DNA of 32,000 nucleotides. Source: Coprobacillaceae bacterium (GTDB taxonomy: Bacteria > Bacillota_I > Bacilli_A > Erysipelotrichales > Coprobacillaceae). Under the pieces are notes generated by a model that saw only the letters and a program-made list of their open reading frames with translations, was not told the DNA's origin and ran no database searches. The DNA lies in assembly GCA_963675915.1 (NCBI GenBank), contig OY780959.1, positions 360,001 to 392,000 on the forward strand, in the 5' to 3' direction. Below are positions 1,327-17,124 of the stretch, one piece after another (within the stretch, counting starts at the first letter, position 1; every line of letters begins with the position of its first letter). The position numbers were made by a program, and so were the translations under genes.

Positions 1327-1555
1327 GATATCAAAGACTCTATGTAACTCTATTTGTGAGACACATGGAGTTTTTTTGTTATTAGCATATATTGGGGTTG
1401 TGGAGAATATTTTCGAATAAAGGGATTAGTACTTTAATTTATTTAATAAAATATATTCTACTGTACTTACTTTCAATTTAAATTAGACAAACTGATAAAA
1501 GTAACTGATTATGGTAAATCAACGTAATTTGAGTATTACAATATAGATTTTATCT

Positions 1556-2340
1556 TTACCCCCTATTCTCGATAAGAGTAGCCCCGATGCTTTTGTTTTT
1601 GCAGTCCGTGACTTTGTTGTCTCGGCCACTGCAGCTGTAGTGGGCATAGTAGGTGCCATCACGATTTCTGGATATTTTTCCGCTCACATATGAATGACCA
1701 CATTCACCACAAAATAATTTACCGGTCAGCAGGTAAAAGTGGCACCCATTACGCCGTGGTTTGATTTTGGCATACATCATTGATTGGACCAGATTCCATG
1801 TATCTTATCTGATGATCCTTGGAAGAGCATTTTCGATCCGGACAATTACTTTGTCGTCCTTATATTGGTGATTGCCTTTTTTCTTGCTTTTGCGCTTTTT
1901 CCAGATATAGCAACCACGATATTTTTCATTTCGGAGAATATCATAAATGCTGTTTTGGCTGAAGTTCTTTCCACGCTTGCTCTTATAACCTTTTTCGTTA
2001 AGTGTCTTGGCGATCAGTGTATATCCGCAGCCTTGGCAATACAACTCAAAAACTAACTTGATGCTTTGGGCTTCGATTTCATTGATCTCGTATTTTTGAT
2101 TAACAATATTGAATCCGAGTGGAGCGGTACCACCATTGGAGATTGCTTTTAGGGCATTCTCGTTCATTCCTTTACGGACTTCCCGGGCAAGGTTTATGGA
2201 ATAATATTCATTAATACCTTCCTGTACCGCTTTGAGAATAACAGCTTCTGGCGCGCCATTGAGTTTCTCCAGTACCGAGATCAGACGTACACCGTTATCA
2301 CGTGGGGCGACAATGACACTGAGCTCGAAGCCAATGAAAT
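1556..2340 (-). pseudogene. Large serine recombinase remnant: N-terminally truncated, internally frameshifted and C-terminally short
   Basis: The minus frame 2340->1805 reads ...GVRLISVLEKLNGAPEAVILKAVQEGINEYYSINLAREVRKGMNE... (end of the resolvase domain) and continues into the recombinase domain. A stop at 1805 and a frame change precede the zinc-ribbon segment YLLTGKLFCGECGHSY (1556-1780). About 70 N-terminal residues with the catalytic Ser are absent (stop upstream at about 2343). The protein ends soon after the zinc ribbon. Confidence 0.8.
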
Positions 2341-2346
2341 TGTGTC

Positions 2347-2799
2347 ATGCTTCATGCAACAGTTCAGCTCCAACTTTGTTCAAGGTGTGTTCGCCTGGAC
2401 CTGAATGTCTTGAACGAAACTAGCGCTCTGGATGATCCAGTTGTTGAAAAAACGGCTGTCACAGAGGCAAAGCCGATGACCGTCACAATTACGGCTTACA
2501 CAGTCAAAAAAGGCTACACGCTAAGCTCAATCGCCACAAGGTATAAGACTACAGTTGCCACTCTAGTAAAGTGGAACAAAATTAAAGATCCTAACAAAAT
2601 CTATGTTGGCCAAAAATTGATTTTAGTCGGTGGCACAGGCGCTTCGTCAGCATCTTCAGACAAAGTATACCTAGTCAAAAGCGGTGATACCTTGTCTGGA
2701 ATTGCGAAGAAGCTGGGTAAGACAGTTGATTACTTGGTGAAGAAAAACGGGATCAAGAACCGGAACCTGATCTATCCCGTACAAAAAGTTAAGTACTAG
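2347..2799 (+). CDS. Protein with two LysM repeats; probably the surviving 3' part of a phage or cell-wall hydrolase gene
   Basis: Two LysM-like units are present: [43 protein letters not shown] and [41 protein letters not shown]. No catalytic domain is seen. The 5' region abuts the recombinase remnant. Confidence 0.6.
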
Positions 2800-2801
2800 C
2801 C

Positions 2802-3014
2802 ATGGGCGCGTTCAATTACTTTTATACCGGGGATAAAGTCAAAGTCAAAAACGATTGTGCGGATATTCTCAATAACAGATTGCCGGACCTCTTGAAGGCA
2901 TCGACATTCACGGTCATGTATTTCGAGAGAGTACACGGTGAAGCGTGTTATCTGCTTGAATCATTCAACGGAGGCCGTTATTGCTTCCACCAATCGGTAT
3001 TAGAAAGAGCCTAG
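2802..3014 (+). CDS. Hypothetical 70-aa protein
   Basis: The ORF starts 3 nt after the preceding stop and ends inside a terminator hairpin. No motif was recognised. Confidence 0.4.
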   Translation: MGAFNYFYTGDKVKVKNDCADILNNRLPDLLKASTFTVMYFERVHGEACYLLESFNGGRYCFHQSVLERA

Positions 3015-3035
3015 GGTAAAACCTAGGCCTTTTTG
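3009..3035. terminator. Hairpin terminator shared by convergent ORFs
   Basis: gcctagg-gtaaaa-cctaggc is followed by cttttt on the + strand. Both convergent stop codons lie within the stem. Confidence 0.6.
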
Positions 3036-3439
3036 TGTTTATTTTGGTTTCCTTCAAAACTAATAATATATTCGAACTGCGATTTTTCATTAATTTCAAT
3101 TTCGAATTCAAATTCTTGTGAATAATTGTCACCAAAAATATTATAATAATTAAATATTAGGACGTATTTACCAACATCTTTACTCGTTGTTTTTTGTGAA
3201 ATAAATGTTAATTTAATTGAATCGTTTGAGTTAATTGAAATTGGTTGTGCATTGTGTATCATTTGTCCTGTTTGATATCTAATACCAATTCTAAGGTTTA
3301 CAGCTGGACCATTTCCGCTATTCGAGACTGTCAAAGGATAATTAAAGAAACTTGCTGGTGTAATTATTAACCGGTTATCTTTAGTATACTCAACTTTTTT
3401 GCCTAAAATGTCTCTTGCTTTTCTTAAATCATCTGGCAA
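3023..3439 (-). CDS. Hypothetical protein, possibly 5'-truncated by the IS66 insertion
   Basis: The track start is a TTG. The same frame stays open upstream (LLDGSFDIRYD-) right to the IS end at 3473. No family was recognised. Confidence 0.45.
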   Translation of the reverse strand: MPDDLRKARDILGKKVEYTKDNRLIITPASFFNYPLTVSNSGNGPAVNLRIGIRYQTGQMIHNAQPISINSNDSIKLTFISQKTTSKDVGKYVLIFNYYNIFGDNYSQEFEFEIEINEKSQFEYIISFEGNQNKHKKA

Positions 3440-3519
3440 ATCGTAACGTATATCAAAACTGCCATCTAAAAGGTATGCGTCAAATAGAGCGGTGGTAGGT
3501 TGTCGAGGTCATTGATGGT

Positions 3520-3882
3520 ATGATTATCACATCGAATTGGAGGTGTGATGATTTGAATTATTCTGATGATCAGTGGCAGGTGATATTTACTGAGGCTGCC
3601 AATAGTGATCTGACCATTAAAAAATGGTGTTTGGCTAACGATGTTTCGTACAATGCTTTTTGCTACCACAAGTATTCTAAGCCATATTTGAATCGCTCAA
3701 GAGATGAAGTTAAGGATTCTGGATTTACTACAGCTCTTGTCAGGCTGGATATTGTTGATTGCAACAGTAAAGTTGTTTCCAAGGGGTTCGATGTCAATAT
3801 TGGCAAGGCTACTATTTCGGTTGACGACTCGACAGACTTGGAAACTCTGGCTAAACTGATAGGTATGATCAATGAAGCTTAG
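3520..3882 (+). CDS. tnpA: IS66 accessory protein TnpA (orf1)
   Basis: This is the first small ORF of the IS. It overlaps tnpB by 11 nt. An alternative TTG start at 3553 lies behind GGAGG (3540-3544). Confidence 0.75.
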   Translation: MIITSNWRCDDLNYSDDQWQVIFTEAANSDLTIKKWCLANDVSYNAFCYHKYSKPYLNRSRDEVKDSGFTTALVRLDIVDCNSKVVSKGFDVNIGKATISVDDSTDLETLAKLIGMINEA

Positions 3883-4231
3883 GTTTGAAGACTTCGACAA
3901 TATCTATTTGGTTCCTGGGGCAACTGATCTTAGGAAAAGCTACGCCGGGTTAAGCGCGATTGTATCCCACAGCCTGTATCTTGACCCCACCGCCAATAAC
4001 CTGTACATCTTTTGCAACAGATCCAAGAAAAGCATCAAGATGCTGGAGTTCGACAAGAACGGATTTGTCATCCACTCCAAGAAGCTGCTTAATAAAGATA
4101 AGTTCTTCTGGCCCAAGGGTGATGAAGATATCACTTCAATGGTTGTTGACATCCGTCAGTTGAGTTGGTTGCTTGATGGATTGGCAATTGAACAGAAAAG
4201 GGCATTCAAGGACATTTCAGTAATGATATAG
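3872..4231 (+). CDS. tnpB: IS66 accessory protein TnpB (orf2)
   Basis: The roughly 119-aa protein starting ...IYLVPGATDLRKSYAGLSAIV... fits the IS66 Orf2 pattern (DMRKSfdGL) and the expected position. Confidence 0.85.
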   Translation: MKLRFEDFDNIYLVPGATDLRKSYAGLSAIVSHSLYLDPTANNLYIFCNRSKKSIKMLEFDKNGFVIHSKKLLNKDKFFWPKGDEDITSMVVDIRQLSWLLDGLAIEQKRAFKDISVMI

Positions 4232-4378
4232 CCCCTACGCATAAGATTAATTCACATTTTTTTGTGGGTTTATCTTTTGCCTTTTGAAGTTATTCACATC
4301 TTTTATAAATTGCCGTGAAATCAAGACTTTCAGGGCTTTTTATGCTACAATGCCACTAGTGGAAAGAGGTGGATTCAA

Positions 4379-6163
4379 GTGATCAAATTGATGGAAGATA
4401 TGACAAAAGAAGAACTTATCGAAGCGTTCAAACAACGTGAACAGGAACTCTATGCCAAAATCGAATCCGACCGTATTTCAAAAGAAAAACTTATTAAAGA
4501 AAAGAAGAATTTATCTGCCGATAATAAGAAATTGACTTCCGATATTGATAAAATGGCAGCTGAAATCAAAGAACGCAAACTTGAACTACAACAGAAAAAC
4601 GAATACATCAAATTATTGGAAAACGCCCGCTACAGCTCCCAACGCAACAATATTAAGGAATATAACCAAGGTCCTGATCTGTTTAGTCTAATCGGTGTTG
4701 ATTTTGATAATGCTACTGAAACCGAAGAATTCGAAACTACGGAAATCAAAGGTTACAAAAGAAAAGTTAGAATCCCCAAAGAAAAACATATCAATTATGA
4801 CCATCTCAAAACCAATATAATTACAGAAGAAACTCCTGATGGTTTCGACGTTTGCGATCTTTGTGGTACAACTATGACAATCAAAAAATACGATGAAAGA
4901 AAAGAACTTGTCTATACACCCGCCAAAGTTGAATTGAATATTTACCGTACACCGGTATACGAATGTGTTGCTTGTCAGGAACACAACTTGGAAGGTAAAT
5001 CATCGTACAAGAAAGTTCCTGGAAGACAACCGGTTATCAAGGGAAGCATTGCATCGCCATCACTGATTGCAACTATAATGGACATGAAATATTTAAAGGG
5101 TTTGCCACTGGCTGCTCAGGAAAAACGTTTCCTTGAAAATGACATCGTCATCCCTAGACAGAATATGGCCAACTGGATGATCAAGGCATCGGTTCATCTT
5201 AACCTGTTGTTTGAGTGCATGCACAAAGACTTGTTGTCCATGGAAGTGATCCACTGCGATGAAACCACCACCCAGGTTCTAAAGGAAGAAGGCAAAGAAC
5301 CTCAAAGCAACTCTTACATGTGGGTGTTCAGAAGTAACCAGTATGATGCTCCGATTATCTTGTATCGTTATGATCCAACTCGCTCAAAAAAGGTTGTTGA
5401 GGACTTTATCGGTGATTACTCCAATCATATGGTTACCGATGCTTATATTGCTTACGAGTCATTGGATAATGTCACCAATTGCTTCTGCCATGTCCATGCT
5501 TTCCGCTATTTCCGTGAAGCCTTGGATGTACTGCCAAAAGGCAGCAATAAAAACCAAAGTTACGAATACAAATGCTATCGCTATTACAAAAAAGTATTCG
5601 AAGCAAAAAACAAAATTGAACAGGCTGCTAAGGGAAAATATCCAAAGAACCGGGATAAATATTTTCAATATATTCATAAGGGTCGAAAAGATGTCGTAAA
5701 GCCGATCTACGATAAGTTTTTAGCGTACCTTAAAGAAATAATCCTGTTGCCCGAAGTTAATATGAAACCAACCTTGCTTAAGGCAATCAAATATCTGATG
5801 AACCACGAAAAGGAATTCAGCGAGGTATTTAATAACCCGAAAGTTCCATTCGACAATTCAAGCACGGAGCGAGCTATCAGACCGTTTGTCGTATCAAGGA
5901 ATCGATGTAAATTCTATACAAGCCCCAAAGGAGCGCAAGCCGCAGCGATAATCTATTCGATACTGTTGAGCGCCCAGGAAAACAAGCTGTCACCGTACAT
6001 GTACATGACGTACGTACTGGAACGTCTTCCGGGAATCGATCCTACTGATGAAGAAGAAATTAGAAAACTACTACCCTACAATAAGGAACTGCCAAGATAT
6101 CTGCGTCAATTGACAGCGAAGGAAATCAAAGAACTAAAAAAAGGAATCCCAAGACGGAAATAA
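4379..6163 (+). CDS. tnpC: IS66-family DDE transposase TnpC
   Basis: It has an N-terminal coiled coil, a zinc finger (CDLCG...CVACQ) and DDE-region motifs HCDETTTQVL, VTDAYIAYESL and NSSTERAIRPF. The GTG start lies behind GAAAGAGGTGG. Confidence 0.9.
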   Translation: MIKLMEDMTKEELIEAFKQREQELYAKIESDRISKEKLIKEKKNLSADNKKLTSDIDKMAAEIKERKLELQQKNEYIKLLENARYSSQRNNIKEYNQGPDLFSLIGVDFDNATETEEFETTEIKGYKRKVRIPKEKHINYDHLKTNIITEETPDGFDVCDLCGTTMTIKKYDERKELVYTPAKVELNIYRTPVYECVACQEHNLEGKSSYKKVPGRQPVIKGSIASPSLIATIMDMKYLKGLPLAAQEKRFLENDIVIPRQNMANWMIKASVHLNLLFECMHKDLLSMEVIHCDETTTQVLKEEGKEPQSNSYMWVFRSNQYDAPIILYRYDPTRSKKVVEDFIGDYSNHMVTDAYIAYESLDNVTNCFCHVHAFRYFREALDVLPKGSNKNQSYEYKCYRYYKKVFEAKNKIEQAAKGKYPKNRDKYFQYIHKGRKDVVKPIYDKFLAYLKEIILLPEVNMKPTLLKAIKYLMNHEKEFSEVFNNPKVPFDNSSTERAIRPFVVSRNRCKFYTSPKGAQAAAIIYSILLSAQENKLSPYMYMTYVLERLPGIDPTDEEEIRKLLPYNKELPRYLRQLTAKEIKELKKGIPRRK

Positions 6164-6292
6164 ACTGTCCCTGGATTCCTTTTCACTTACCCTCGAATAT
6201 TCTCCCACCGCTCTATTTGACGCATACGATATAAATACTAGAACAAAATTCACATAATTGTAACATTACATATGTGTTATTATTCTCATATA

Positions 6293-6301
6293 TGATATAA
6301 T
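6293..6301 (+). promoter_or_regulatory. Candidate extended -10 promoter element (TGaTATAAT) upstream of the mcrB-like gene
   Basis: TGATATAAT lies about 130 nt upstream of the ATG at 6431. Only a weak -35 (TGTGTT) is seen. Confidence 0.3.
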
Positions 6302-6430
6302 CTACTTATCATGTAAGGATTATGTGACATTTTGGGTTTGAAGAAGCGAAGAATGTAATATTATTTATGTATTGTAATCTTGTTTTTCCGTCACTGAGTC
6401 ATTGATAGATTATCAAAGGGGATTTTCAAA

Positions 6431-8725
6431 ATGAAAATATATTTAGGGAAGTTTAGCAGCAAGTATCCTGAACAAGTAAAACATAGATTCTATGCTGCTG
6501 GAGTTGAAGGAAACAAATGGTATGGTGATGTCAAAGTCGGAGACTATGTTTTTGTCGGATATTCAGGCAAAATCATTGAATTGTGGCAGGCGAGAGAATA
6601 TGGGAAGTTTAAAAACAGTATAAACCCCAAAGATGACAATGTCTTGTTGTTTGATTTGGTCAAAAAATATGATGATATAAGCTTGATAAATGACTTTGCA
6701 AGATATAAGTATTTCAAACATGACTTGAATCTTGTAAATAAAATCTCTAAAAGCGTTACTGGATTGGGGTTTATTCCCATTAACACTTCAGAGAGTTGCC
6801 CGATGCCTGAAGACATTGATTTCAAGGCTGGTTTAGTAGATATCTACATATCCTTGAAAGAATTGGAAGTGGATTATAAAGAAGGTGACATTATCGTTAC
6901 GATAGATAATGAAACTTATATGAATATTGAAAGTATCAATCGGTTTAGAGATGGGCAATTTGTTTTGTATGAAGAGTTAAATAAATTATATGAAGAAAAA
7001 TGTGCGGATGATAAGAAATATTCGTTGAGTGAATTGCGATATTTTGCTGAGCAAGATAATGCGCCTAAAAAGCGTAACTATTTGGATTCTTTAATTGAAG
7101 AATTACATAAGAATGGATTCATGAAAGTATTCAGTATCGTAAGCTTGTATGACAATGTACTTGTCGGAAGAAAGAAAACATTTGTTGGAAAATCCAAACC
7201 AAAAGCTGGAGAATCTGTTATTGAAGAGACGGTTGATGATTCTGATAGTGATGACGAACAATATAATTTACAGGCAAGTTTGCTAAATTTTAATCCGAAC
7301 CTAATTTTATATGGACCTCCGGGAACGGGTAAAACATTTGCGACAAGAAAAATAATTGATAACTTTGAAAAGAAGTACAACAATAATGGTGGCAGCTACA
7401 AACAAGCAGACAAAGAAAATAGGGTTAAATCGGTAACTTTCCATCAGTCGTATTCCTATGAGGAATTTATTGAAGGAATCAGACCGGAATTAGGTGTGGA
7501 TTCTTCGAATGTTGGTTATAAGCTTGAAAATGGATTATTTAAAGAATTGTGCATCAATGCGGAGAAGGAATTTTTGAAAAATATTAACAATGTTGATTAT
7601 GTTGATATGATTCATTCCGAAAGCAAAATATGGAAGATGTCGCTAGGTGAGCGAAAGTCGAATACCTTGTTCAATGAATGCATTAGAGTCAATGATATTG
7701 CGATTGGCTGGTTGAATGATCAAGATTTGACAGATATGGATCAACAAGAGATCCTGGATGCTTTAGGGGATAGTAGCATTTTCGGTGATAAACCAACCCA
7801 AAATGCAAATACTATCTATTCATTTGTAAATGAGATGACAATTGGCGATATTGTCCTGGTTTATGATAGCCAGCAGACGACAAGGATGATAGGGGTTATC
7901 AAATCTGAATACCGATACGATCAAAAATATGAGGTTAGACACCGAAGAAGTGTGGAATGGTTCAAAGATTTAGACTATCCAATCAATATTCATAAATATA
8001 ATGGATACAAAAACTTATCTTTGAAGACTATTTATCCACTAACTAGAATTAGCATTTCCGACATAATCGAAATAGTGACTCAAAACAGCAATTCTCAAGC
8101 GAGTATGGAAGATAAAAAAGTTATCAAGCCTTACTATATGATTATTGATGAAATAAACCGAGGGAACATCGCCAAGATATTCGGAGAGTTAATTACTCTT
8201 GTTGAACAAGATAAGAGGGGAAATTATAAGAGTCTATTGCCCTATTCTAAGAAGGATTTTACTGTACCTAGCAATTTGTATATCATTGGTACCATGAATA
8301 CTGCCGACCGATCGATAGCCGCTATTGATACGGCGCTTAGAAGAAGGTTTACGTTTGTTGAAATCGAACCGGATTCATCAATTTTGTCACTGCAAGGTAA
8401 CGCGATAATTAACGATAAAGTTGATTTGGCGAAATTGCTTGATTCATTGAATGAACGAATCATCAACAACTATGATCGAGATCATCGGATTGGTCATGCC
8501 TATTTCATGGGTATTGAAACCTTGAATAATCTTTTCCAAACATGGTACTACAAAATCCTACCGCTATTGAGTGAATATTTCTACAATGATATCGAAGCGT
8601 TGCAGTCGATAGTTGGCAAGGATTTTTATGATGATAATGGCAATGTAAAATATCTGGACATATCTGATGATCAGCAAGGTGGTTCAGAGTTTGAGCAAAG
8701 TTTGATTAATATCTACCGGGTGTAG
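6431..8725 (+). CDS. mcrB: McrB-family AAA+ GTPase (type IV restriction motor subunit) with an extra N-terminal region and a roughly 175-aa insertion inside the AAA+ module
   Basis: Motifs seen are Walker A GPPGTGKT, FHQSYSYEEFIEGIRP, Walker B/McrB signature MIIDEINRGNIAKIFGELITLVEQDKRG, IIGTMNTADRS and ALRRRFTFVE. An mcrC-like gene follows 3 nt downstream. Confidence 0.9.
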   Translation: MKIYLGKFSSKYPEQVKHRFYAAGVEGNKWYGDVKVGDYVFVGYSGKIIELWQAREYGKFKNSINPKDDNVLLFDLVKKYDDISLINDFARYKYFKHDLNLVNKISKSVTGLGFIPINTSESCPMPEDIDFKAGLVDIYISLKELEVDYKEGDIIVTIDNETYMNIESINRFRDGQFVLYEELNKLYEEKCADDKKYSLSELRYFAEQDNAPKKRNYLDSLIEELHKNGFMKVFSIVSLYDNVLVGRKKTFVGKSKPKAGESVIEETVDDSDSDDEQYNLQASLLNFNPNLILYGPPGTGKTFATRKIIDNFEKKYNNNGGSYKQADKENRVKSVTFHQSYSYEEFIEGIRPELGVDSSNVGYKLENGLFKELCINAEKEFLKNINNVDYVDMIHSESKIWKMSLGERKSNTLFNECIRVNDIAIGWLNDQDLTDMDQQEILDALGDSSIFGDKPTQNANTIYSFVNEMTIGDIVLVYDSQQTTRMIGVIKSEYRYDQKYEVRHRRSVEWFKDLDYPINIHKYNGYKNLSLKTIYPLTRISISDIIEIVTQNSNSQASMEDKKVIKPYYMIIDEINRGNIAKIFGELITLVEQDKRGNYKSLLPYSKKDFTVPSNLYIIGTMNTADRSIAAIDTALRRRFTFVEIEPDSSILSLQGNAIINDKVDLAKLLDSLNERIINNYDRDHRIGHAYFMGIETLNNLFQTWYYKILPLLSEYFYNDIEALQSIVGKDFYDDNGNVKYLDISDDQQGGSEFEQSLINIYRV

Positions 8726-8728
8726 ACA

Positions 8729-9997
8729 ATGATTTCAAATGGTGTTGTCACAATCTTTGAGGATAAACAAAAAAAGCTGAATCTTTCTACTCAGCAATTC
8801 AATGATATCAACGAGATGAAAACAATTGTTGGTGAAGGAAATATTATTTTACAACATGACGGCAATCTGTTGGTAAGAGGGTATATTGGATTTGTCCAAG
8901 TGAATCAAACAAGGTTGCTAGTATATCCAAAAATATCAAATAGACTTGACGATGAAATGGAAAAGAAGCGGTCATTGCATATTTTCATTAGAATGCTTGC
9001 CTTTACAGGATTTGATAGTGTTAAAAAGACGCTTGATTCGCTAATGATGGATAAGTATCAAGGAGATATCCTCGAAATATTCATCGGCCTGTTTGTAGAT
9101 GAACTGGCACTGCAATTTAGTCGCGACATGAATCGTGGTTATAATAATATATTAGAAAATCAGTCATTTATCAAAGGAAAAGTTGATTTCCCAGAAACGG
9201 TAAAACGCAATAGTTTCCGCCGGCATATCCATACCGTCCGCTATGATCAGTTTACCGAAAATATTCTCATCAATCGTATTTTTAAATCGGTTATCATCAA
9301 TTTGAGCAAAGTAACAAAAATAAACAAGAACAAGATTGGCTTGAAGAAATTGATGCTTTGGCTGGAAGATGTTGATCAAATTAATTTGGATGATCAAATC
9401 TGGGATAGAGTGGTATTCAATCGTAATAGCAAAAACTACGAACCATCGTATAACTTGGCAAAAATGTTTTACTATAATTCAAGCCCCAACCTGAATCAGG
9501 GGGCTGATCTTGTGTTTAGTTTTCTTGTACCTGCGAATCAGCTTTTTGAGATGTACCTATACAAGACTTTATTACCGGGATTTACAAAAGACCAAGTGGT
9601 AAATTACCAAGGTCCAATGAAATATCTGGCTAGAAATTCAACTGAAAATATTTTCAGGTTGCGACCGGATATCACAATAACCAGAGATCACAAAGTAGAA
9701 CATCTTATTGACGCAAAATACAAGGACATCAGTTGTGATTATGGTAAACTCAAGATTTCCCAAAGTGATATTTATCAAATGCTTGCCTACAGCGTTCGAT
9801 ATCAGTGCAATAATGTTATGCTGGTATATCCAAAGTTTCTTGATGATGACAATGAACAGATATTGGTGGATCAACTAATGATCTCAAATTATGAAAAGAA
9901 TATTGTCATAAAGATTATCAAGATAGATTTGGAAATTGATCCTTATTTATTACTCCAAAGGTTGAAACTAGAAATATGCGAGTCTGATAATTTATGA
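8729..9997 (+). CDS. mcrC: McrC-family PD-(D/E)xK nuclease subunit
   Basis: RPDITI...HLIDAKYK is a nuclease motif and LFEMYLYKTLL is a McrC-like segment. The gene lies directly after the McrB-like gene. Confidence 0.85.
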   Translation: MISNGVVTIFEDKQKKLNLSTQQFNDINEMKTIVGEGNIILQHDGNLLVRGYIGFVQVNQTRLLVYPKISNRLDDEMEKKRSLHIFIRMLAFTGFDSVKKTLDSLMMDKYQGDILEIFIGLFVDELALQFSRDMNRGYNNILENQSFIKGKVDFPETVKRNSFRRHIHTVRYDQFTENILINRIFKSVIINLSKVTKINKNKIGLKKLMLWLEDVDQINLDDQIWDRVVFNRNSKNYEPSYNLAKMFYYNSSPNLNQGADLVFSFLVPANQLFEMYLYKTLLPGFTKDQVVNYQGPMKYLARNSTENIFRLRPDITITRDHKVEHLIDAKYKDISCDYGKLKISQSDIYQMLAYSVRYQCNNVMLVYPKFLDDDNEQILVDQLMISNYEKNIVIKIIKIDLEIDPYLLLQRLKLEICESDNL

Positions 9998-10022
9998 TAA
10001 CGAAACAGCACAGGAGGAGATT

Positions 10023-11228
10023 ATGTTAGGAGCGATAATAGGTGATATTGTTGGGAGCCCATATGAATTTGACTGTAATAATATCAAGATCAAGGATTTC
10101 CCTCTATTTTCTGAAGTATCGAGGTTTACCGATGATTCAATTATGACTATTGCGGTTGCCCAGGCAGTAATCAACGGTTATGGCTCAAAAGAAAAGACGA
10201 AATCCGAAGCTATAAAATCAATGCAAGCATTAGGGCGGAAATATCCCAATGCAGGATACGGGACTAATTTCATTAACTGGATCTATGAGGATAATCCTAA
10301 GCCCTATAATAGTTATGGGAACGGTTCGGCTATGAGAGTCTCGGCAGTTGCCTGGATTTACAATAATCTCAAAGAGGTAGAAGAATTCGCTGAGGTTACT
10401 GCTGCAGTGTCGCATGACCATCCGGAAGGAATAAAAGGGGCAAAAGCAACTGCTGCAGCAATTTTCCTTGCCAGACAGGGTGCAAATAAGAGTTATATAC
10501 AAAAGCATATAACGAATACATATCACTATAATTTGGACCTCAGCTGTGAAGAAATTCGTCGATATTATCGGCATGTTGAATCATGTCAGGAAACGGTGCC
10601 TGAAGCAATCATTGCTTTTCTTGAAGGAAATAGTTTTGAGGATGTGATAAGGCTGGCGGTATCTTTAGGGGGAGACAGCGATACATTGACGGCGATTGCA
10701 GCAAGTATTGCAGAAGCATATTACCATGTCCCTGAAGAAATCAAAAGAAAATCCTGTTCCATTTTGGATGAATATTTGAAAACTTTACTTGTGTCGTTTG
10801 ATGTGTTCCGAAGTAATATTATTGAAAGACGAAAAAAGATATTTGATGATTTGATGTCAAGTAAACCATACTTTGATAAGGAGAGTAAAACGCAATGGAC
10901 TGAAGCAAATCGGGACGGCAATCAAGTTCGATTTGCGTACACTGTGTATGGTAAAGAAGTTGAATTGCTGCAGCGCTTTGCTCAAAGTGGAGATTTTACT
11001 GATTTTGATTACCATGATACCTTGGACAATTTTGGCTTGAGTATGGACTTGGATCTATACCAGAGAGCAGCTGAAAATTCTTGCCCTCTATTGTTAAGGG
11101 CAATGCTTACAAGTATCGTTCGTCAAGAAAGATTCAATGATGGACTGATTGCTAGAGCGATAGAAACTGGAACTATAAGCGCTATTTTGGATTCCTATAG
11201 CAAACAACTTAATTCGGAGTGTTTGTAA
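10023..11228 (+). CDS. ADP-ribosylglycohydrolase (ARH/DraG family) fused to an unassigned C-terminal domain of about 120 aa
   Basis: ARH hallmarks are GAIIGDIVGSPYEF, FTDDSIMT, YGNGSAMRVSAVAW, HDHPEGIKGA and LGGDSDTLTAIAASIAEA. AGGAGGA at 10012-10018 precedes the start, 25 nt after the mcrC stop. Confidence 0.85.
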   Translation: MLGAIIGDIVGSPYEFDCNNIKIKDFPLFSEVSRFTDDSIMTIAVAQAVINGYGSKEKTKSEAIKSMQALGRKYPNAGYGTNFINWIYEDNPKPYNSYGNGSAMRVSAVAWIYNNLKEVEEFAEVTAAVSHDHPEGIKGAKATAAAIFLARQGANKSYIQKHITNTYHYNLDLSCEEIRRYYRHVESCQETVPEAIIAFLEGNSFEDVIRLAVSLGGDSDTLTAIAASIAEAYYHVPEEIKRKSCSILDEYLKTLLVSFDVFRSNIIERRKKIFDDLMSSKPYFDKESKTQWTEANRDGNQVRFAYTVYGKEVELLQRFAQSGDFTDFDYHDTLDNFGLSMDLDLYQRAAENSCPLLLRAMLTSIVRQERFNDGLIARAIETGTISAILDSYSKQLNSECL

Positions 11229-11298
11229 ATAGGGTTCGATGTTACAAAAATAAAGAGATTCGTAAAATTTACATATTCTAATATAGGAGGATAAGAAA

Positions 11299-12243
11299 AT
11301 GGAAAGAAATTCAAAAAAATCGGAAAAAAGCATTAAGGATACCCTAAAGAAAGCAGCTAAAAATACAGGAGATGTTGCATCAGGGGTGTTAGGAAAAGCG
11401 AAAGATACTGCTGTTAATTCCACAAACACAGTGCTAAACGTGGTTGATGTAAATGGTAATGGAGAAATAGATATTGAGGATTTTATTATATTAGGGCTGA
11501 AAACTCCTGGTATAAGTGTGAATCGAAATGACTTTTTGCAAAGAGAACTAATGAAAAATTTCCCTCAAGAAACAATAGATGATGCAATATCACATAATCC
11601 AGCTCACGCAAATATACCATCGGAATATATTGATAAGATTGCTGGTGAAGTAATAAAATTCGAAAGAAATTGTGTATCAGGAATCTCAACGGCGCTAGGA
11701 ATTCCGGGTGGAGTGGCCATGGTAGCTACAATTCCAGCTGACCTTGTTCAATATTATGGATATATGCTTAGAGCTGCTCAAAAACTTTTATATCTATATG
11801 GCTTCCCTGAAATAGATACTACTGAAAAAAGTAATAAGATTGATTCTGAGACTATGAATATTTTGATTCTTAGTCTAGGGGTTATGTATGGAGTTCACGG
11901 AGCTAATAATGCTTTAAAAGCAGTTGCAAAAGCATTGGGAAGTGGTGTTGAAAAAAAATTGCTAAAAACCGCACTGACGAAAGGTACCATATATCCTATT
12001 GTCAAGAGCGTCTCAAAATGGTTTGGGGTTAATATGACCAAGCAAGTATATGCCGGTTTCTTTAAAAAGGCAATTCCTGTTGTAGGAGGAGTGATAGGTG
12101 GAGGAATCACCTATTTATCATTTAAACCGTGCTGTGATAAACTACAGAAATCCTTACAAGACACATTGTTAAGCAATCCAAGCCATCACTCTAGCGATGA
12201 TGAAAACATTATTTATGATGCTTTTGAGGTTATTGAAGATTAG
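11299..12243 (+). CDS. EcsC-family protein with an N-terminal EF-hand/dockerin-like calcium-binding loop
   Basis: The central region ISTALGIPGGVAMVATIPADLVQYYGYMLRAAQKLLYLYGFPE resembles the EcsC family. The loop DVNGNGEIDIED fits DxNxNGxIxxxD. The RBS AGGAGG lies at 11285-11290. Confidence 0.7.
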   Translation: MERNSKKSEKSIKDTLKKAAKNTGDVASGVLGKAKDTAVNSTNTVLNVVDVNGNGEIDIEDFIILGLKTPGISVNRNDFLQRELMKNFPQETIDDAISHNPAHANIPSEYIDKIAGEVIKFERNCVSGISTALGIPGGVAMVATIPADLVQYYGYMLRAAQKLLYLYGFPEIDTTEKSNKIDSETMNILILSLGVMYGVHGANNALKAVAKALGSGVEKKLLKTALTKGTIYPIVKSVSKWFGVNMTKQVYAGFFKKAIPVVGGVIGGGITYLSFKPCCDKLQKSLQDTLLSNPSHHSSDDENIIYDAFEVIED

Positions 12244-12603
12244 AAAATCAAGTTATCATGTTTTGTGTGTTACAAAGATAAACTATTGTGATCGACAAAT
12301 TTTGCGGGATTGTTTATTTAGGCTTTTATATAAATCTATGAAATCAAGTAACTGATTCTGCGAAGTTGATATGAATTAATAATTCAGAGGTTAACTGTAG
12401 CTAGCCATTTTATTTGATGCCATCTAACCATAATCTAGTCATAATAAATAAAGGTCAATTCCAAATAATTTGATGAATTTTTCTTCAAATTGCTTGAGAT
12501 TGACCTTTTGCTTTGTTATTTTATTGGTAATAAATCTAGAGAAAGAAAAAATGAGAGACGCCACCACCAAGCAGTTTCTCTCATTTGCCATATAGACAAG
12601 AAT

Positions 12604-13158
12604 ATGATAACGTATCACGGAGTAAAAATCAATAATAAATTGATGAAGATTGATTCGCGGGCCAAACTCCAGGCCTATTATAATGAATTGGTTTCCAATA
12701 TCAATCGTTTTTCCTTGAGTTGCGCTGGTGACTGCCAGGGCAATTTCATAATTCATGGTTATTATAACCGAAGGGTGAAACTGCCTTTTGGCTTTTTTAA
12801 TTTGAGAATAATGCGGCTAAGATGTAAGGATTGTGGCAGAACCCACGCAATTCTTCTTTCATGTTTGGTTCCATATTCAAGTATCCCGTTGGCTGTTCAA
12901 GTTGAGATTTCCATACATAAAAATAATCAGAAACTATTAAAAGCCATTCTTGATCGAAATCCCTATATGTCTGAGTGTGAAATTTATAATGTTGTGAGCA
13001 GGTATATCAATGTTTGGCAGCAACGTTTGATGTCGTTGAGAATTGAATCAAATGATATTAACCAACTTGTTGAAAGTTGTTTTTCAAATTATTTGATGCA
13101 GTTCATGCAATGTAGAAATACCATAAATATCCTGTATACCATCAACCACATAGGATGA
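12604..13158 (+). CDS. Zinc-ribbon protein of the transposon (DUF6431-like pattern); start uncertain
   Basis: CAGDCQGNFIIHGYYNRRV...LRCKDCGRTHAILLSCLVPYS gives a CxxC...HG / CxxC..TH pattern. The track ORF starts at 12490 inside the transposon end. The first in-frame ATG is at 12604 and has no clear RBS. Confidence 0.55.
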   Translation: MITYHGVKINNKLMKIDSRAKLQAYYNELVSNINRFSLSCAGDCQGNFIIHGYYNRRVKLPFGFFNLRIMRLRCKDCGRTHAILLSCLVPYSSIPLAVQVEISIHKNNQKLLKAILDRNPYMSECEIYNVVSRYINVWQQRLMSLRIESNDINQLVESCFSNYLMQFMQCRNTINILYTINHIG

Positions 13159-13206
13159 GTTAAATAATCGATTCTATTAGTATATAGTGGGTGACGGAGG
13201 TATTAT

Positions 13207-14454
13207 ATGGATAAAAAAGAACAAGAATACGTAGCGTTGATGCGCCATCGGATCATTCATGACATCATTACCGGAAATTATGATGCTGCATGGTCTAAGA
13301 ATCAGGCGATTACGGAAGCTACCAAGAAAGTCTATAAGAGTTTCGACAACCGTGATTTCACTGTCTCAAGCAGTACCATCTCCAGATGGATTGCTGCTTA
13401 CGAAGAAAAAGGCTTCGATGGATTGATTCCTCAAAAGCGGAGTGATTGTGGCAAGTCAAGAAGACTGGATGATGACATCGTTGAAACAATCAAATATTAT
13501 AAGACAACCTATCCTAGATTGCCGGCAACTGTAATATACGGCAAGTTGATTGAGAAAGGAATCATCAAGAAAACTGATGTTTCCCTATCAACCGTTAACC
13601 GATGTGTCAATCAGATAAAGTCGGAATTGCGGCTTTCAAACAAGAAAGACATGCGTCGCTACGAAGTGCCCCATATCAATATGAACTGGGCTGGCGACAG
13701 TTCGGTCGGCCCTTACATAACCATTAATGGCAAGAAGAACCGGACATACATGATTGCCCTGATCGATGATGCTTCAAGGATGATCGTCCATCTTGATTTG
13801 TATTTGAATGACAACACAGTCAATTTGATGGATACCATGAAAAGTGCGGTAACAAAATATGGAGTTCCTGAGATGTTCAGGTTTGACAACGGCTCCAATT
13901 ATCGAAATCACCAGATCAAGATGATTGCAGCAAGGATTAATTCAACCATTAGCTACTGCAAACCGTACTCGCCGGAAGGAAAATCAAAAATTGAGCGGGT
14001 GTTTCGGACGATCAAAGATCAGTTCTTCGCCCAAATAAACATAAAAGATTACACAAACAATCTAGAAGGTTTGAAGCAGGATTTAAGCCAGTTCATCAAT
14101 GATTACAACAACAAGGTGCATTCGTCTTTGAATGGATTGACACCTCATCAACGTTTTTTTCAGGAAAGCAACCTTATCAAAAGGCTTGATGATGACTTTA
14201 TCGACAACACTTTCCTGTTCGAAGTAGAGCGGTCTGTCAGTACTGATTCGGTAATCAAAATAGATAATCGGGAATACGAGATTGATTATATCTATTCTGG
14301 TGAAAGGCATATGTTCCGATATACTCCGGACTTGGAAAACGTCTATATAGTCAACAAGAATACCGGCGAACTGGAACGGATTCACCTACTTGATAAAAAC
14401 GCCAATTCAAAAGTAAAACGAGTGCAGCCAAAATTATGCGGAGGAGAAGATTAA
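13207..14454 (+). CDS. DDE transposase (rve/integrase core with Mu-transposase-like C-terminal barrel)
   Basis: An N-terminal HTH is present (SSSTISRWIAAYEEKGFDGL). The candidate D, D, E triad is NWAGDSSV, FRFDNGSNYRN and PEGKSKIERVFRTIK. The C-terminal VIKIDNREYEI...FRYTPDLENVYIV is Mu-like. The RBS is GGAGG. Confidence 0.85.
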   Translation: MDKKEQEYVALMRHRIIHDIITGNYDAAWSKNQAITEATKKVYKSFDNRDFTVSSSTISRWIAAYEEKGFDGLIPQKRSDCGKSRRLDDDIVETIKYYKTTYPRLPATVIYGKLIEKGIIKKTDVSLSTVNRCVNQIKSELRLSNKKDMRRYEVPHINMNWAGDSSVGPYITINGKKNRTYMIALIDDASRMIVHLDLYLNDNTVNLMDTMKSAVTKYGVPEMFRFDNGSNYRNHQIKMIAARINSTISYCKPYSPEGKSKIERVFRTIKDQFFAQINIKDYTNNLEGLKQDLSQFINDYNNKVHSSLNGLTPHQRFFQESNLIKRLDDDFIDNTFLFEVERSVSTDSVIKIDNREYEIDYIYSGERHMFRYTPDLENVYIVNKNTGELERIHLLDKNANSKVKRVQPKLCGGED

Positions 14455-15257
14455 TGGAAAAATATTGGACCAGATATGGATTGGAATTCAATCCGTTTAT
14501 CAAGAACTCAAAGAATTTATTTATTGAAACAAGTGAATACCAGGAATTGAAAGTACGCCTTAACAGCCTTTTTGAAATCAAGGGTTTCGGACTAATAGTC
14601 GGTGAACCCGGCCATGGCAAAACAACCATGATCAGAAACTATATCAAAACACTCCCCAAATCAGCTTACAAGATAATTTATTTGTCAATGTCGACCCTTA
14701 CAGTCAAGGAGTTCTATATGCAACTAGCTGAGTCGCTGGATCTGACTCCTCGGTATCGAAAGAATGATCTGTTCAGGGAGATCCAATCAGCCATAAACCA
14801 GTTGATTTACGAAAAAAGGATTACCCCGGTGTTTATCTTTGATGAATGTAATTACATGAATAACGCCATTCTTAATGATTTGAAGATGATCTTCAATTTT
14901 GATATGGATTCCAAGGATCATGCTGTAGTCTTGATGGTCGGATTGCCGACAATAACAAGGAACCTGAAATTAACCGCTCATGAACCATTGCGCCAGCGAA
15001 TGATTATCAATTACAAACTTGAGCCATTGAACAAGAGTGAAAGTCTTGCTTATATCAAAGACAAGCTCCAAGGCGGAAAAACAATTCAAGAAGTGTTCAA
15101 TGATAATGCAATTGAGGCAATCATCAATGCATCCAACGGCACCTGTCGGGTTATTGATCGGATATGTGACCGGGCAATGTTTATCGGAGCAATCAGAAAA
15201 ATCGAAGTAATTGATTCCGATTTAATCCTAGAAACAATCGAAGAGGTAGTAATTTGA
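14454..15257 (+). CDS. AAA+ ATPase transposition helper (ExeA/TniB/MuB-like)
   Basis: YGLEFNPF...LIVGEPGHGKTT (Walker A) and VFIFDECN (Walker B) are present. The ATG overlaps the transposase stop (TAATG). GGAGGAG lies upstream. Confidence 0.8.
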   Translation: MEKYWTRYGLEFNPFIKNSKNLFIETSEYQELKVRLNSLFEIKGFGLIVGEPGHGKTTMIRNYIKTLPKSAYKIIYLSMSTLTVKEFYMQLAESLDLTPRYRKNDLFREIQSAINQLIYEKRITPVFIFDECNYMNNAILNDLKMIFNFDMDSKDHAVVLMVGLPTITRNLKLTAHEPLRQRMIINYKLEPLNKSESLAYIKDKLQGGKTIQEVFNDNAIEAIINASNGTCRVIDRICDRAMFIGAIRKIEVIDSDLILETIEEVVI

Positions 15258-15562
15258 TAATCGAATACTTCTGCAACTATGATGAAAAAACATGGGCCAA
15301 CGAGATAGTAATAGTCTCACAAAACCCAGATAAGTGTGAATTCCAGCTAAGATATGACGGAAATGAAATCGAAGTGATAGTAGGTAAATCAGCCAAAGGG
15401 AACTGGATTTGCATCCCGTTGATGAAGCTGGGACTGGAACTATCATATTTCAAAGACAAATTTTGGAACAAGTCAGCTCTATTGCGCGAGATAGATCCAA
15501 TCAGCAGCGAAGCAATATCACAAGCAATCTACAAAATAAACGAGTCAGGGATAATCGTCTAA
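15254..15562 (+). CDS. Small transposon-encoded hypothetical protein (102 aa)
   Basis: The TTG start overlaps the ATPase stop by 4 nt and the ORF lies inside the transposon ends. No motif was recognised. Confidence 0.45.
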   Translation: MIIEYFCNYDEKTWANEIVIVSQNPDKCEFQLRYDGNEIEVIVGKSAKGNWICIPLMKLGLELSYFKDKFWNKSALLREIDPISSEAISQAIYKINESGIIV

Positions 15563-15794
15563 AAAGGCGATTATTTTCTTTTTCCTCTAAAACATCATTT
15601 CAAATAAACTGAATATTCCATTCGATTAATTTGAAGAGCATCAAAAAAGGACCAAAAGAAGGCCCATATAATTTGAAGAATCATCCATCAAATAAATTGA
15701 CTAGCTACAGTTAACTAATTACCAAATTAAGGTTCAAAATTTATCTAAATAGAAGTGCTAATCCAAATAAGAATGTGCAGACGCCAAATTATTG

Positions 15795-15825
15795 TCCAGT
15801 GTGAGTAAATCGCTCACACTGGACG
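15795..15825 (+). other. Perfect 12-bp stem-loop (gtccagtgtgag-taaatcg-ctcacactggac) just outside the transposon right end
   Basis: Direct reading. No strong T-run follows (ggattta). It could be a terminator or processing site of the pre-insertion ecsC-like transcript. Confidence 0.35.
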
Positions 15826-15987
15826 GATTTATGAGATAATGTGATTATGCTGTTTGCGTTTATTAACTAAAATTATTGGATTAATCAATATTTTAAGATA
15901 GGGTCCAAGAAAACTAATAAATGAATCTTGTGTAAAGCCAGTATAAGACATTTACATTAGGATATTACTAAAAAGGGGAACGGAAGT

Positions 15988-16875
15988 ATGATGGAAAGAA
16001 TTAAAGAGAAATATTCAAAACGTAACTTAATGATGATTGCAGTACTAATAGTTGTAGCGTTATTGTCGATTTTTGTTTTTGCAAATATTGCAACATCACC
16101 TAGCATTAATGCGGGAACGATACAATCATTGGATGATAAAAAAGTAGTTGTGATGAGTCTTGCCGCAGTAACGGCGGCATCATCAACGGCTTTAACGTTA
16201 ATTCCAGGAGATGTTGCAATGCCGATAGCTAATCAAATTGCGGAATTAAGCACTTATTTCATTGTTATATTATGTGCGATTTTATTGGAAAAAACGCTAA
16301 TTACAGCGGTCGGTTATGTATCATTTACTTTCATTATTCCATTTGCTTGTGCTTTGGGAATTTCATATTTGTTCGTGAATAAAGGAGTATTAAAGGTTTT
16401 TGCAATAAAACTAGCTATATTAGGAATTGTTCTTTCTGCCGCAATTCCGATTAGTGTGCATGTAAGTGACATAATATACTCTACTTATCAAGAATCGATA
16501 GAACAAACAGTTGAAACTGTAGAACTTAACAATGAATATATTGATGAAACGAAGAAAGACCTTTCTGCAAATGATAAAAACTGGATCGAGAATATCGGAG
16601 ATTATTTATCCAATATTACTTCTAAAATAGGAATTGGCATATCTGCAATAACTGATAAGGCGGAAAATACACTTAGTACATTGCTAGATACAATTGCTGT
16701 TTTAATTATTACATCTTGTGTTATTCCAATAGTAATATTAATGATTTTTGCATGGATAATTAAAATCCTGTTTGGGTTTAATATCAATGGCGCAAAACCA
16801 AATGATTATCAACGAATCGCACAAAAGTTGCGAAAAAAAGGAAATTCATCTGGTGTTTCAAATGAAATCCAATAA
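15988..16875 (+). CDS. Polytopic membrane protein, unknown family
   Basis: Several long hydrophobic segments flank a central acidic soluble loop (STYQESIEQTVETVELNNEYIDETKKD). The RBS GGGGAACGGAAG lies upstream and a terminator lies downstream. Confidence 0.6.
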   Translation: MMERIKEKYSKRNLMMIAVLIVVALLSIFVFANIATSPSINAGTIQSLDDKKVVVMSLAAVTAASSTALTLIPGDVAMPIANQIAELSTYFIVILCAILLEKTLITAVGYVSFTFIIPFACALGISYLFVNKGVLKVFAIKLAILGIVLSAAIPISVHVSDIIYSTYQESIEQTVETVELNNEYIDETKKDLSANDKNWIENIGDYLSNITSKIGIGISAITDKAENTLSTLLDTIAVLIITSCVIPIVILMIFAWIIKILFGFNINGAKPNDYQRIAQKLRKKGNSSGVSNEIQ

Positions 16876-17002
16876 TACAGCTAGATAAAATTCACGTTTA
16901 ATTGCCTACAGGTATTGTTCTTATAAGGTGGTTTTGTGAGTATAAATCTTAGATTTAAGTTGCAGCATGTCATATCATAGAAGTGCTACGGTTTAATCTG
17001 TC

Positions 17003-17030
17003 AGACCCCATTCTAGATGGGGTCTTTATT
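17003..17030 (+). terminator. Rho-independent terminator
   Basis: agaccccat-tctag-atggggtct is followed by ttatt. Confidence 0.65.
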
Positions 17031-17124
17031 ATTGAGGTTCTTCATCTAACTATATTGTATGCGTCAAATAGAGCGGTGGGAGAATATTTAATGGTATGCA
17101 AAAAGGAATCCGGGGGACAGTTTG

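Follow-up and report, generated by a model that had tools for sequence, protein, structure and literature searches.

A McrBC restriction locus of a Coprobacillaceae bacterium with a probable facultative ADP-ribose eraser gene behind mcrC

Introduction

T4-like phages inject or make ADP-ribosyltransferases (Alt, ModA, ModB) early in infection, and phages with modified DNA, the targets of McrBC, are typical carriers of such enzymes. Here we describe a string of four genes in a 32,000-nucleotide stretch of Coprobacillaceae bacterium DNA (contig OY780959.1, positions 360,001 to 392,000; hereafter the window), in which mcrB and mcrC are followed by a gene for an ADP-ribosylglycohydrolase (ARH) fused to a DUF6508 domain and by an EcsC-like gene. 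With moderate confidence we read this region as a type IV restriction enzyme accompanied by a facultative ADP-ribose eraser gene and an unrelated EcsC-like gene.

In canonical McrBC, represented by E. coli K-12 and by Thermococcus gammatolerans McrB (6UT3), mcrB precedes mcrC, McrB is an AAA+ GTPase with Walker A, Walker B and NxxD motifs, McrC joins DUF2357 to a PD-(D/E)xK nuclease, and a separate domain reads the modified base. The McrBC census of Bell et al. (2024, eLife RP94800, PMC11090510) reports that insertions into the McrB GTPase are frequent and describes EVE/YTH-McrB fusions; ADP-ribose, macro domains and EcsC go unmentioned among its McrBC-associated genes, and an ADP-ribose eraser is an accessory class that it does not list.

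On the side of ADP-ribose, Iyer, Burroughs, Anantharaman and Aravind (2022, Viruses 14:1977, PMC9503650, section 3.8) predicted that ARG-centric host systems act against viral ADP-ribosyltransferases, and host countermeasures to the phage enzymes are known as computational predictions only. These systems have no coupled transferase, and nucleases are their second line of defence. Their partners include alarmone-type HD phosphatases, vWA/SseB chaperones, Macro proteins and restriction-endonuclease effectors with or without helicases; a Nudix or WYL regulator with a helix-turn-helix (HTH) domain is present in ~42% of them, and a coupled phosphatase (rhodanese-phosphatase, calcineurin-like, HD or HAD) in ~55%. 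A further system, DarHTG, combines an ARH-like antitoxin, DarG3, with a UvrD-like helicase (Nucleic Acids Res 2026, PMC13069673). The authors of a preliminary description of the window knew of no McrBC variant with an ARH-family hydrolase, and we likewise found no paper describing a pairing of McrBC with an ADP-ribose eraser in the literature searched, where McrBC and ADP-ribosylglycohydrolase are co-mentioned only in an unrelated context.

Four closely spaced genes begin with a McrBC pair

Genes 1 to 4 (A to D) all lie on the + strand, as do the features given below unless otherwise stated: mcrB at 6431-8725 (764 aa), mcrC at 8729-9997 (422 aa), the ARH-DUF6508 gene at 10023-11228 (401 aa) and the EcsC-like gene at 11299-12243 (314 aa). 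The intergenic gaps are 3, 25 and 70 nt, and strong Shine-Dalgarno sequences stand ahead of the ATG codons of gene 3 (ACAGGAGGAGATT) and gene 4 (TATAGGAGGATAAGAAA). A consensus scan found no + strand terminator-like site between the four genes and placed one within gene 4 (12093-12115) and the rest more than 500 nt downstream. The preliminary description had given the same open reading frames (ORFs), gaps, ribosome-binding sites and lack of a terminator; its domain calls (McrB, McrC, ARH, EcsC-like) agree with Pfam, PADLOC and public naming, and the motifs it quoted (Walker B IIDE, McrC DAKYK, ARH DDS and GGDSDT) are all present. Upstream of mcrB, the consensus scan marks a sigma-70-like promoter candidate at 6283-6312 (TTCTCA-18-TATCAT) that is a pattern match only, promoter-like sites in the region being no more numerous than in shuffled sequence; an extended -10-like TGATATAAT was read nearby. 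All four proteins are singletons in their own 90% clusters.

McrB matches Pfam AAA_5 and the NCBIfam McrB model (4e-44, under the equivalog cut-off), and aligns with the solved McrB GTPases 6UT3 (6e-67) and 6HZ4 (4e-43). Its motifs read as a Walker A GPPGTGKT (aa 295; 7313-7336), a FHQSYSYEEFIEG signature (7439-7477), a Walker B MIIDEINRGN (aa 570; 8138-8167), an NxxD motif NTADRS (8297-8314) and RRRF (8339-8350). McrC covers profile positions 3-318 of 318 of Pfam McrBC PF10117 (2e-65), matches NCBIfam McrC at 2e-29, and carries the PD-(D/E)xK motifs RPD (9662-9676) and IDAKYK (aa 327; 9707-9724). Judged by their sequences, genes 1 and 2 are a bona fide McrBC, that is, a modification-dependent type IV restriction system with McrC as its PD-(D/E)xK nuclease, and GTP-dependent cleavage of modified DNA is predicted for it. 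The window shares with canonical McrBC the gene order, the GTPase motifs, the McrC architecture and a separate reader domain.

The reader is where this McrB departs from its E. coli counterpart, in which that function belongs to an N-terminal DUF3578. Here, a 175-residue domain (aa 388-562; 7592-8116) splits the GTPase, and its AlphaFold2 model (predicted local distance difference test, pLDDT, 87.9) returns as top Foldseek matches in the PDB only YTH/EVE proteins or the modification-dependent endonuclease VcaM4I, with scores (E ~1e-3, probability 1.0, TM 0.41-0.49) that are evidence at the level of the fold only. PADLOC PDC-S02 models also match the stretch of McrB that holds the insertion. 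The modelled fold suggests that the insertion is probably an EVE/YTH-like reader of modified bases, akin to the census fusions in joining a specificity domain of the PUA/EVE superfamily to the McrB GTPase. Plasmid McrB homologues from Klebsiella, Bacillus and Exiguobacterium (~39% identity) align unbroken across the insertion-bearing region.

A further departure from canonical McrBC is an extra N-terminal DUF8426 (PF28530; aa 1-270; 6431-7240), assigned from precomputed matches only. The clade to which this McrB belongs consists of 760-790-aa Firmicutes proteins with precomputed Pfam DUF8426 and McrB_lid matches, and its homologues form more than 100 clusters at 44-69% identity across Firmicutes. 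DUF8426, which may be a second DNA-binding module, is kept across the clade and absent from plasmid and viral McrB relatives. The last difference from canonical McrBC is the ADP-ribosylhydrolase gene after mcrC.

The third gene encodes an ADP-ribosylhydrolase with a candidate docking domain

The N-terminal part of gene 3 (10023-10802) is a compact, ARH3-like domain that matches Pfam ADP_ribosyl_GH (PF03747) at 1e-33, with 117.7 bits against a cut-off of 26.2. Its metal and catalytic motifs are GDIVGSPYE (10041-10067), TDDS (aa 36; 10128-10139) and GGDSDT (aa 216; 10668-10685). Across 22 homologues, residues D8, E15, D37, D38, D218, D220 and T221 do not vary, which bears out the earlier claim that the residues expected for activity are retained, and D37, D38, D218, D220 and T221 line up with the ARH3 motifs TDD and GGDTDT. 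The closest solved relatives are ARH3 (1e-16), Lmo0067, MJ1187 and DraG; NCBIfam matches to DraG (8e-10) and Tri1 (1e-8) are weak, both far under the equivalog cut-offs. Gene 3 is predicted to encode an ARH3-like ADP-ribosylhydrolase whose active site is intact. With DraG/DraT and Tri1/Tre1, which reverse arginine ADP-ribosylation, it shares the superfamily and the conserved metal-binding acidic residues; unlike them, it stands in neither a nitrogenase nor a type VI secretion context, and its closest solved relative is ARH3.

The C-terminal DUF6508 domain (Pfam PF20118, 9e-12; aa 279-396; 10857-11210) is modelled by AlphaFold2 as small and mostly helical (pLDDT 88.4), and a Foldseek search of the PDB gave no match with E below 1. 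Elsewhere DUF6508 has ARH, ARH plus HD_4, or Macro as its fusion partner, and it also occurs unfused, directly after McrC; given these varied fusions and the stand-alone form, we take it as a candidate target-selection or docking module. It is linked with nuclease-type defence genes as well as with ADP-ribose hydrolases (ARH, Macro, ARH plus HD), and is unmentioned in the literature searched.

We found no ADP-ribosyltransferase or sirtuin family match in Pfam scans of the four genes and 10 further window ORFs, a check that cannot speak for ORFs without any Pfam match, such as 3023-3439. Neither Pfam nor PADLOC detected DUF4433/DarT in the four genes, and the PADLOC DarTG models miss gene 3. 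The window resembles DarTG and DarHTG in placing an ARH-fold hydrolase in a defence operon, and one ARH-DUF6508 lineage follows a NERD-UvrD helicase; it differs in having no DarT (DUF4433) or other detected transferase toxin. Because no such toxin was detected, the window ARH does not appear to be an antitoxin to a neighbouring toxin, and we rejected a DarTG-like antitoxin role for gene 3 in a locus with no detectable transferase or sirtuin.

ADP-ribose-related genes recur directly after McrC

Including the window, the McrB clade comprises seven contexts whose McrBs are 62-81% identical, and in three of them an ARH gene directly follows McrC. In the locus with the closest McrB (69% identity; L113-L117), a gap of 21 nt separates McrB-McrC from a 347-aa ARH, after which come two genes of unassigned family and genes for PDDEXK_4, HD_4 and GIY-YIG proteins; in L202 (McrB 66% identity) the gap before the ARH is 136 nt, and the flanks are unlike those of L113. 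The L113 ARH is 22% identical to gene 3, the L202 ARH is 73% identical to that of L113, and the window ARH is only 22-25% identical to the subfamily that these two form. Given that hydrolases of such low identity occupy the same slot after orthologous McrBC, we infer non-orthologous replacement, with at least two independent acquisitions.

An independent sample came from a scan of viral contigs, in which hidden Markov model searches with Pfam confirmation covered 80 more distant McrB loci, 79 of them with a recognisable McrB. McrB and McrC are followed by a stand-alone DUF6508 gene after 31 nt in L123, by a Macro protein in L127 and L161 (gaps of -7 and 25 nt), by a 244-aa gene, a Macro protein and an ARH-SseB protein in L185, and by an ARH in L194; elsewhere, a DUF6508-Macro fusion lies 4 kb upstream in L137, and a DUF6508 gene lies upstream on the opposite strand in L152. 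Across the 79 loci, ARH, Macro or DUF6508 genes occupy 6 of the 115 proximal downstream slots (same strand, +1 to +3 after McrC), whereas of the 636 remaining genes within 8 kb only 2 are of these kinds (odds ratio 17 and p = 2.5e-4 by Fisher's test); the sample is small, drawn from viral contigs and partly made up of related loci.

The link between McrBC and an ADP-ribose gene spans at least four McrB lineages, and McrC and that gene are separated by between -7 and 31 nt, except for a single gap of 136 nt. Recurrence in three of seven clade contexts, enrichment in the slot and spread over at least four lineages therefore indicate that the link between McrBC and ARH is not random, and the pairing appears modular and optional, yet non-random.

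Among the clade contexts, L113 is a dense defence island. Immediately upstream of its McrBC-ARH, at 259-7758, lies a complete pPIWI_RE prokaryotic Argonaute-type module made up of a WYL regulator, a pPIWI_RE nuclease, a protein of 1045 aa that matches pPIWI_RE_Z weakly, and pPIWI_RE.

Co-location in a mobile island as an alternative

The most serious alternative is pure co-location, in which McrBC, ARH-DUF6508 and the EcsC-like gene would be independent units gathered in a tmRNA island rich in insertion sequences (IS), their tight spacing would reflect compaction of island cargo, and the ARH would serve a housekeeping or generally protective role. Several observations weigh against the facultative pairing and have to be set beside its recurrence. 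The slot after McrC holds other genes in four of the seven clade contexts: HNH_2 in L118, a WYL gene in L120, a gene of unassigned family with CBS and acetyltransferase genes in L200, and, in L203 (3742-10749), a T4 endonuclease IV-like gene, a WYL regulator and a Wadjet-like set (DUF2397, DUF2398, SbcC-like). The largest McrB cluster has 42 members, of which only 4 carry ADP-ribose genes, and a Pfam census of the slot in 41 loci is heterogeneous, with RhuM three times, Macro, ResIII and M78 twice each, and RES, DUF6508, WYL, HNH_2, Vsr and type I R subunit domains once each. Weak promoter-like matches also lie just 5' of gene 3 (9962-9991) and gene 4 (11241-11268); the layout makes co-transcription of the four genes plausible, and separate transcription would also be compatible with these matches.

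The neighbourhoods of gene 3 relatives add to the same side. Scanning genome contigs with a profile of the full ARH alignment returned almost solely ARH-only relatives, a metagenome scan with DUF6508 gave 12 loci, and viral scans gave one locus for the second ARH subfamily and two for DUF6508. McrBC lies beside ARH-DUF6508 in none of the 11 other contexts of this architecture, and homologues of genes 1, 2 and 4 are absent from all 11. Several of these contexts are of a housekeeping kind, with ARH-DUF6508 after Era in Streptobacillus, beside EngB, Lon, ClpX and trigger factor, beside HtpG, or immediately behind smpB-tmRNA; it also occurs after an acetyltransferase gene. Throughout L090-L096 the ARH gene stays in place and what lies upstream of it changes (nothing, a NERD-UvrD helicase, or GtrA/glycosyltransferase genes), a pattern more suggestive of an insertion hotspot than of a partnership. 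Finally, McrBC occurs in only 2 of the 80 genome loci with close ARH-only relatives (50-60% identity), where it lies directly upstream of the ARH run on the same strand: the exact order is McrB-McrC, Macro, vWA-like, ARH in L012, and McrB-McrC with Macro and ARH further on, separated by genes of unassigned family, in L065. At the same time, these two loci are further cases of the link.

Co-location draws support from much of this. The three units are found far more often apart than together, the gene following McrC differs from locus to locus, in Streptobacillus and other taxa ARH-DUF6508 has housekeeping neighbours, and IS66, IS21 and IS4 elements surround the four genes. In a Peptacetobacter sp. 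(L053, 4943-7315), smpB, the tmRNA gene (5516-5865) and ARH-DUF6508 (6050-7315) follow one another in a row, suggesting that the tmRNA region is a usual home of the latter; this locus shares its tmRNA anchor with the window in a different genus. Against co-location stand the two non-orthologous ARH subfamilies that occupy one slot after orthologous McrBC in three of the seven clade contexts, an enrichment confined to proximal downstream same-strand slots and not seen elsewhere in the same islands, the appearance of the pattern in at least four McrB lineages, and the consistently short gaps. On balance we consider co-location rather unlikely, though well within reach. If it held, the region would be an ordinary McrBC in a mobile island.

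The two closest gene 3 homologues (65% identity) adjoin nuclease candidates, not McrBC. One (L001) begins 27 nt after a PDDEXK_4 gene and is followed by Macro and vWA-like proteins; the other (L002-L007) begins 54 nt after a DUF4268 gene, and its surroundings are those of a conjugative element, with type IV secretion genes and, nearby, a polymorphic toxin and SUKH immunity cassette. The nuclease genes ahead of them are the PADLOC single-gene candidates PDC-S26 (3e-79) and PDC-S11 (8e-155). These other nuclease partners speak for a modular pairing of the hydrolase with nuclease-type defence genes.

A three-gene run of Macro, vWA-like and ARH genes is present in 23-30 of the 78 scorable ARH-only loci, many of them from Clostridia. 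It sits among L008-L087 (for instance L058, 8208-10798, and L012, 8197-10807) and likewise in L001 (10001-13436); neither its Macro nor its vWA-like gene is found in the window. The Macro protein has ~340 aa and a C-terminal HTH-like region, and the vWA-like protein has ~217 aa, the MIDAS motif DRSGSMSG and no Pfam match. We had considered this ~217-aa protein (gene 'Y') as a DarT-like toxin and rejected the idea on the presence of the vWA MIDAS motif. The domain at the C-terminus of the Macro proteins ('X') was dropped as a McrBC-specific docking domain, as it also matches 495-851-aa McrB-adjacent proteins (E 1e-4 to 1e-7) and by eye resembles a generic helix-turn-helix region; Pfam returned nothing on the 633-aa proteins.

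The ARH family is also mobile-element cargo. ARH-only relatives 48-50% identical to the gene 3 ARH domain are carried by temperate phages and large Clostridium botulinum plasmids; in Porphyromonas phage phage005b (L222, 4771-5783) the ARH adjoins an integrase and a small regulator, and another lies on C. botulinum plasmid pRSJ19_2 (L221, 7001-7816). The ARH core occurs in Bacteroides phages and jumbo-phage contigs as well.

The EcsC-like gene is most likely an independent neighbour

Gene 4 matches the PADLOC PDC-S30 model (PDLC04989) at 3e-96 over nearly its full length, and its homologues, in more than 100 clusters at 70-79% identity, are publicly named 'EcsC family protein'. Against Pfam, EcsC PF12787 included, it has no match at E 0.01, and a precomputed PF12787 match exists in a few homologues (73-78% identical). 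PDC-S30, which is a PADLOC candidate only and is named, among the papers found, in two genome reports alone, is solitary elsewhere and abuts McrBC-ARH here. Near the N-terminus of gene 4, a weak EF-hand-like DxNxNGxID stretch is kept in homologues.

The preliminary description had cast this gene as a McrBC partner within an expanded type IV system. Were the four genes a true expanded McrBC with obligate or co-evolved partners, the operon-like layout of the window would be expected, and L202, of the same McrB clade, does hold all four families, its 279-aa gene 4 homologue (36% identity, E 4e-50) lying 183 nt upstream of mcrB. This is the sole further co-occurrence, which puts an EcsC-like gene adjacent to McrBC in two of the seven clade contexts. 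However, the gene order of L202 differs and its ARH is non-orthologous, the sister locus L113 has no EcsC-like gene, both extras are missing in four of the seven clade contexts, and the four families are not together in five. Should such genes be frequent in defence islands, a single coincidence among ~80 neighbour genes would be unsurprising. No locus found through gene 3 or gene 4 holds all four families. Homologues of gene 4 stand without McrBC and ARH in ~21 loci of at least 11 distinct contexts (L106-L112 and L205-L218), and at 66-74% identity they are monocistronic, one between an acetyltransferase gene and HicB and another beside RecJ/RelA; among 14 viral-contig loci of the gene 4 family, none has McrB, McrC, ARH, Macro or DUF6508 within 8 kb. 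PADLOC treats the family as a candidate made up of a single gene, the GC content at third codon positions (GC3) is 0.248 in gene 4 versus 0.34-0.36 in genes 1-3, and the 70-nt gap has a promoter-like site ahead of the gene.

Gene 4 is therefore most likely an independent single-gene unit that landed beside McrBC-ARH in the IS-rich tmRNA island, and an obligate four-gene system is improbable. Of the expanded system first proposed, the recurrence of an ARH after McrC stands; the fixed four-gene form was rejected after neighbourhood surveys from each gene, in which the EcsC-like gene recurs beside McrBC only in L202, McrBC is missing from all 11 other ARH-DUF6508 contexts, and most McrBC, close relatives included, have other genes in the slot after McrC. 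A facultative pairing of McrBC with an eraser is supported instead.

Least probable of all is that ARH-DUF6508 is counter-defence or immunity cargo of mobile elements, unconnected with the neighbouring nuclease and protecting its carrier or the cell from DarT/CmdT-type defence toxins or, like Tri1, from Tre1-like interbacterial toxins: the 65%-identical homologue near a toxin/SUKH cassette, the ARH cores of Porphyromonas and Bacteroides phages, jumbo-phage contigs and C. botulinum plasmids, the weak Tri1 match, the orphan antitoxin-like ADP-ribose hydrolases that phages reportedly carry against DarTG, and fusions to an alarmone-type HD_4 hydrolase that would fit removal of toxic nucleotide products all speak for it, but it leaves the preference for the slot after McrC and for other nuclease-type defence genes unexplained, the toxin beside the conjugative-element homologue is a nuclease (Tox-GHH) rather than a transferase, and many contexts are chromosomal and housekeeping, with no mobile-element genes.

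A predicted role in reversing phage-imposed ADP-ribosylation

Three roles for the hydrolase had been put forward in the preliminary description: reversal of phage-imposed ADP-ribosylation, switching of the restriction complex on and off by ADP-ribosylation, and processing of ADP-ribosylated nucleic acid. Taking the facultative pairing of McrBC with an eraser as our reading, the first of these is the best fit, and Iyer et al. (2022) had already predicted it in general terms. The hydrolase would be co-expressed with McrBC and would strip the ADP-ribose that an invader's transferase, a candidate being a phage enzyme of the Alt, ModA or ModB type that is injected or made early, attaches to host macromolecules. 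The substrates could be the restriction complex itself, further host proteins or nucleic acids, and the outcome would be that restriction and host functions stay working during infection. DUF6508 would take the place of the chaperone or substrate-binding domains (vWA, SseB) of ARG-centric systems and would probably pick the target.

Switching by self-ADP-ribosylation is unlikely, the transferase gene that it requires being undetected in the locus. A role on nucleic acid is kept in view because DarG3, an ARH-like antitoxin, has been reported (PMC13069673); by analogy, the window ARH may act on ADP-ribosylated nucleic acid. More broadly, and only tentatively, since we regard it as possible rather than likely, some McrBC systems, in at least four McrB lineages, may have recruited a facultative ARH or Macro eraser, often carrying DUF6508 or replaced by it, with DUF6508 as a docking or target-selection domain; the eraser would either shield the restriction complex from being inactivated by phage ADP-ribosyltransferases or clear ADP-ribose from nucleic acid to let McrBC act.

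Compared with the ARG-centric systems, the window is alike in having an ARH with no detected transferase or sirtuin and a restriction-endonuclease-fold McrC 25 nt upstream, and among the partners of its relatives are HD phosphatase, vWA, SseB and Macro proteins as well as nucleases, some with a helicase and some not. This network of partners matches the published list (PMC9503650), and the locus therefore fits the predicted ARG-centric systems. The differences are several. No WYL or Nudix regulator is present in the window, whereas WYL genes follow McrBC in L120 and L203, both of which have no ARH; no phosphatase is present either, although relatives have ARH-HD_4-DUF6508 fusions and L113 has an HD_4 gene. 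In place of vWA, SseB or TY-Chap, the window carries DUF6508 in the equivalent fused position, with a fold unlike that of TY-chaperones. For an effector it has the full McrBC, GTPase motor included, while McrB and McrC are unmentioned in the 2022 work. Actinobacteria, planctomycetes and proteobacteria are among the lineages named for the ARG-centric systems, whereas the relatives found here are mainly Clostridia and other Firmicutes.

If the tentative broader reading is true, gene 3 would be the first concrete, testable anti-anti-restriction enzyme wired into a restriction operon, and DUF6508 would gain a function. McrBC-ARH forms a compact, clonable three-gene construct with which to ask whether bacteria defend their defences by erasing phage ADP-ribosylation.

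Mobile surroundings of the four genes

The four genes had been placed in an IS-bounded segment of a tmRNA-linked island, and the window agrees with this. The island anchor is the tmRNA gene at 945-1293 (Rfam RF00023, 135 bits), with smpB (486-941) directly 5' of it, and the - strand carries a serine-recombinase fragment at 1805-2167 (Pfam scan). Two IS66-family copies, the left at 3473-6227 on the + strand (tnpA, tnpB and tnpC ORFs at 3520-6163) and the right at 17057-19812 on the - strand, inverted relative to the left, form a 2.7-kb inverted repeat that is 97% identical, with the terminal inverted repeat GTATGCGTCAAATAGAGCGGTGG. The segment between them, 6228-17056 (10.8 kb), contains the four genes, an IS21-like element 3' of gene 4, and a 295-aa ORF; metK lies past the right copy.

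For both IS66 copies, no 8-bp target-site duplication fits a composite-transposon, an independent-insertion or an inversion model, which leaves a composite IS66 transposon carrying the four-gene block as a candidate only. A search for an att-like copy of the tmRNA 3' end that would mark the limit of the island gave no direct repeat of 16 nt or more.

Three smaller features complete the surroundings. A 222-aa ORF with a DUF6431 match (12490-13158) lies just upstream of the IS21-like istA/istB genes (13207-15257) and may belong to that element. A 45-nt inverted repeat (21762-21806 and 23781-23825) flanks an IS4-type transposase gene at 21975-23642 and probably represents the ends of an IS4-type element. 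An 88-nt direct repeat (23808-23895 and 28832-28919), 74% identical, lies 5' of two leucine-rich-repeat protein genes and includes a hairpin and a ribosome-binding site.

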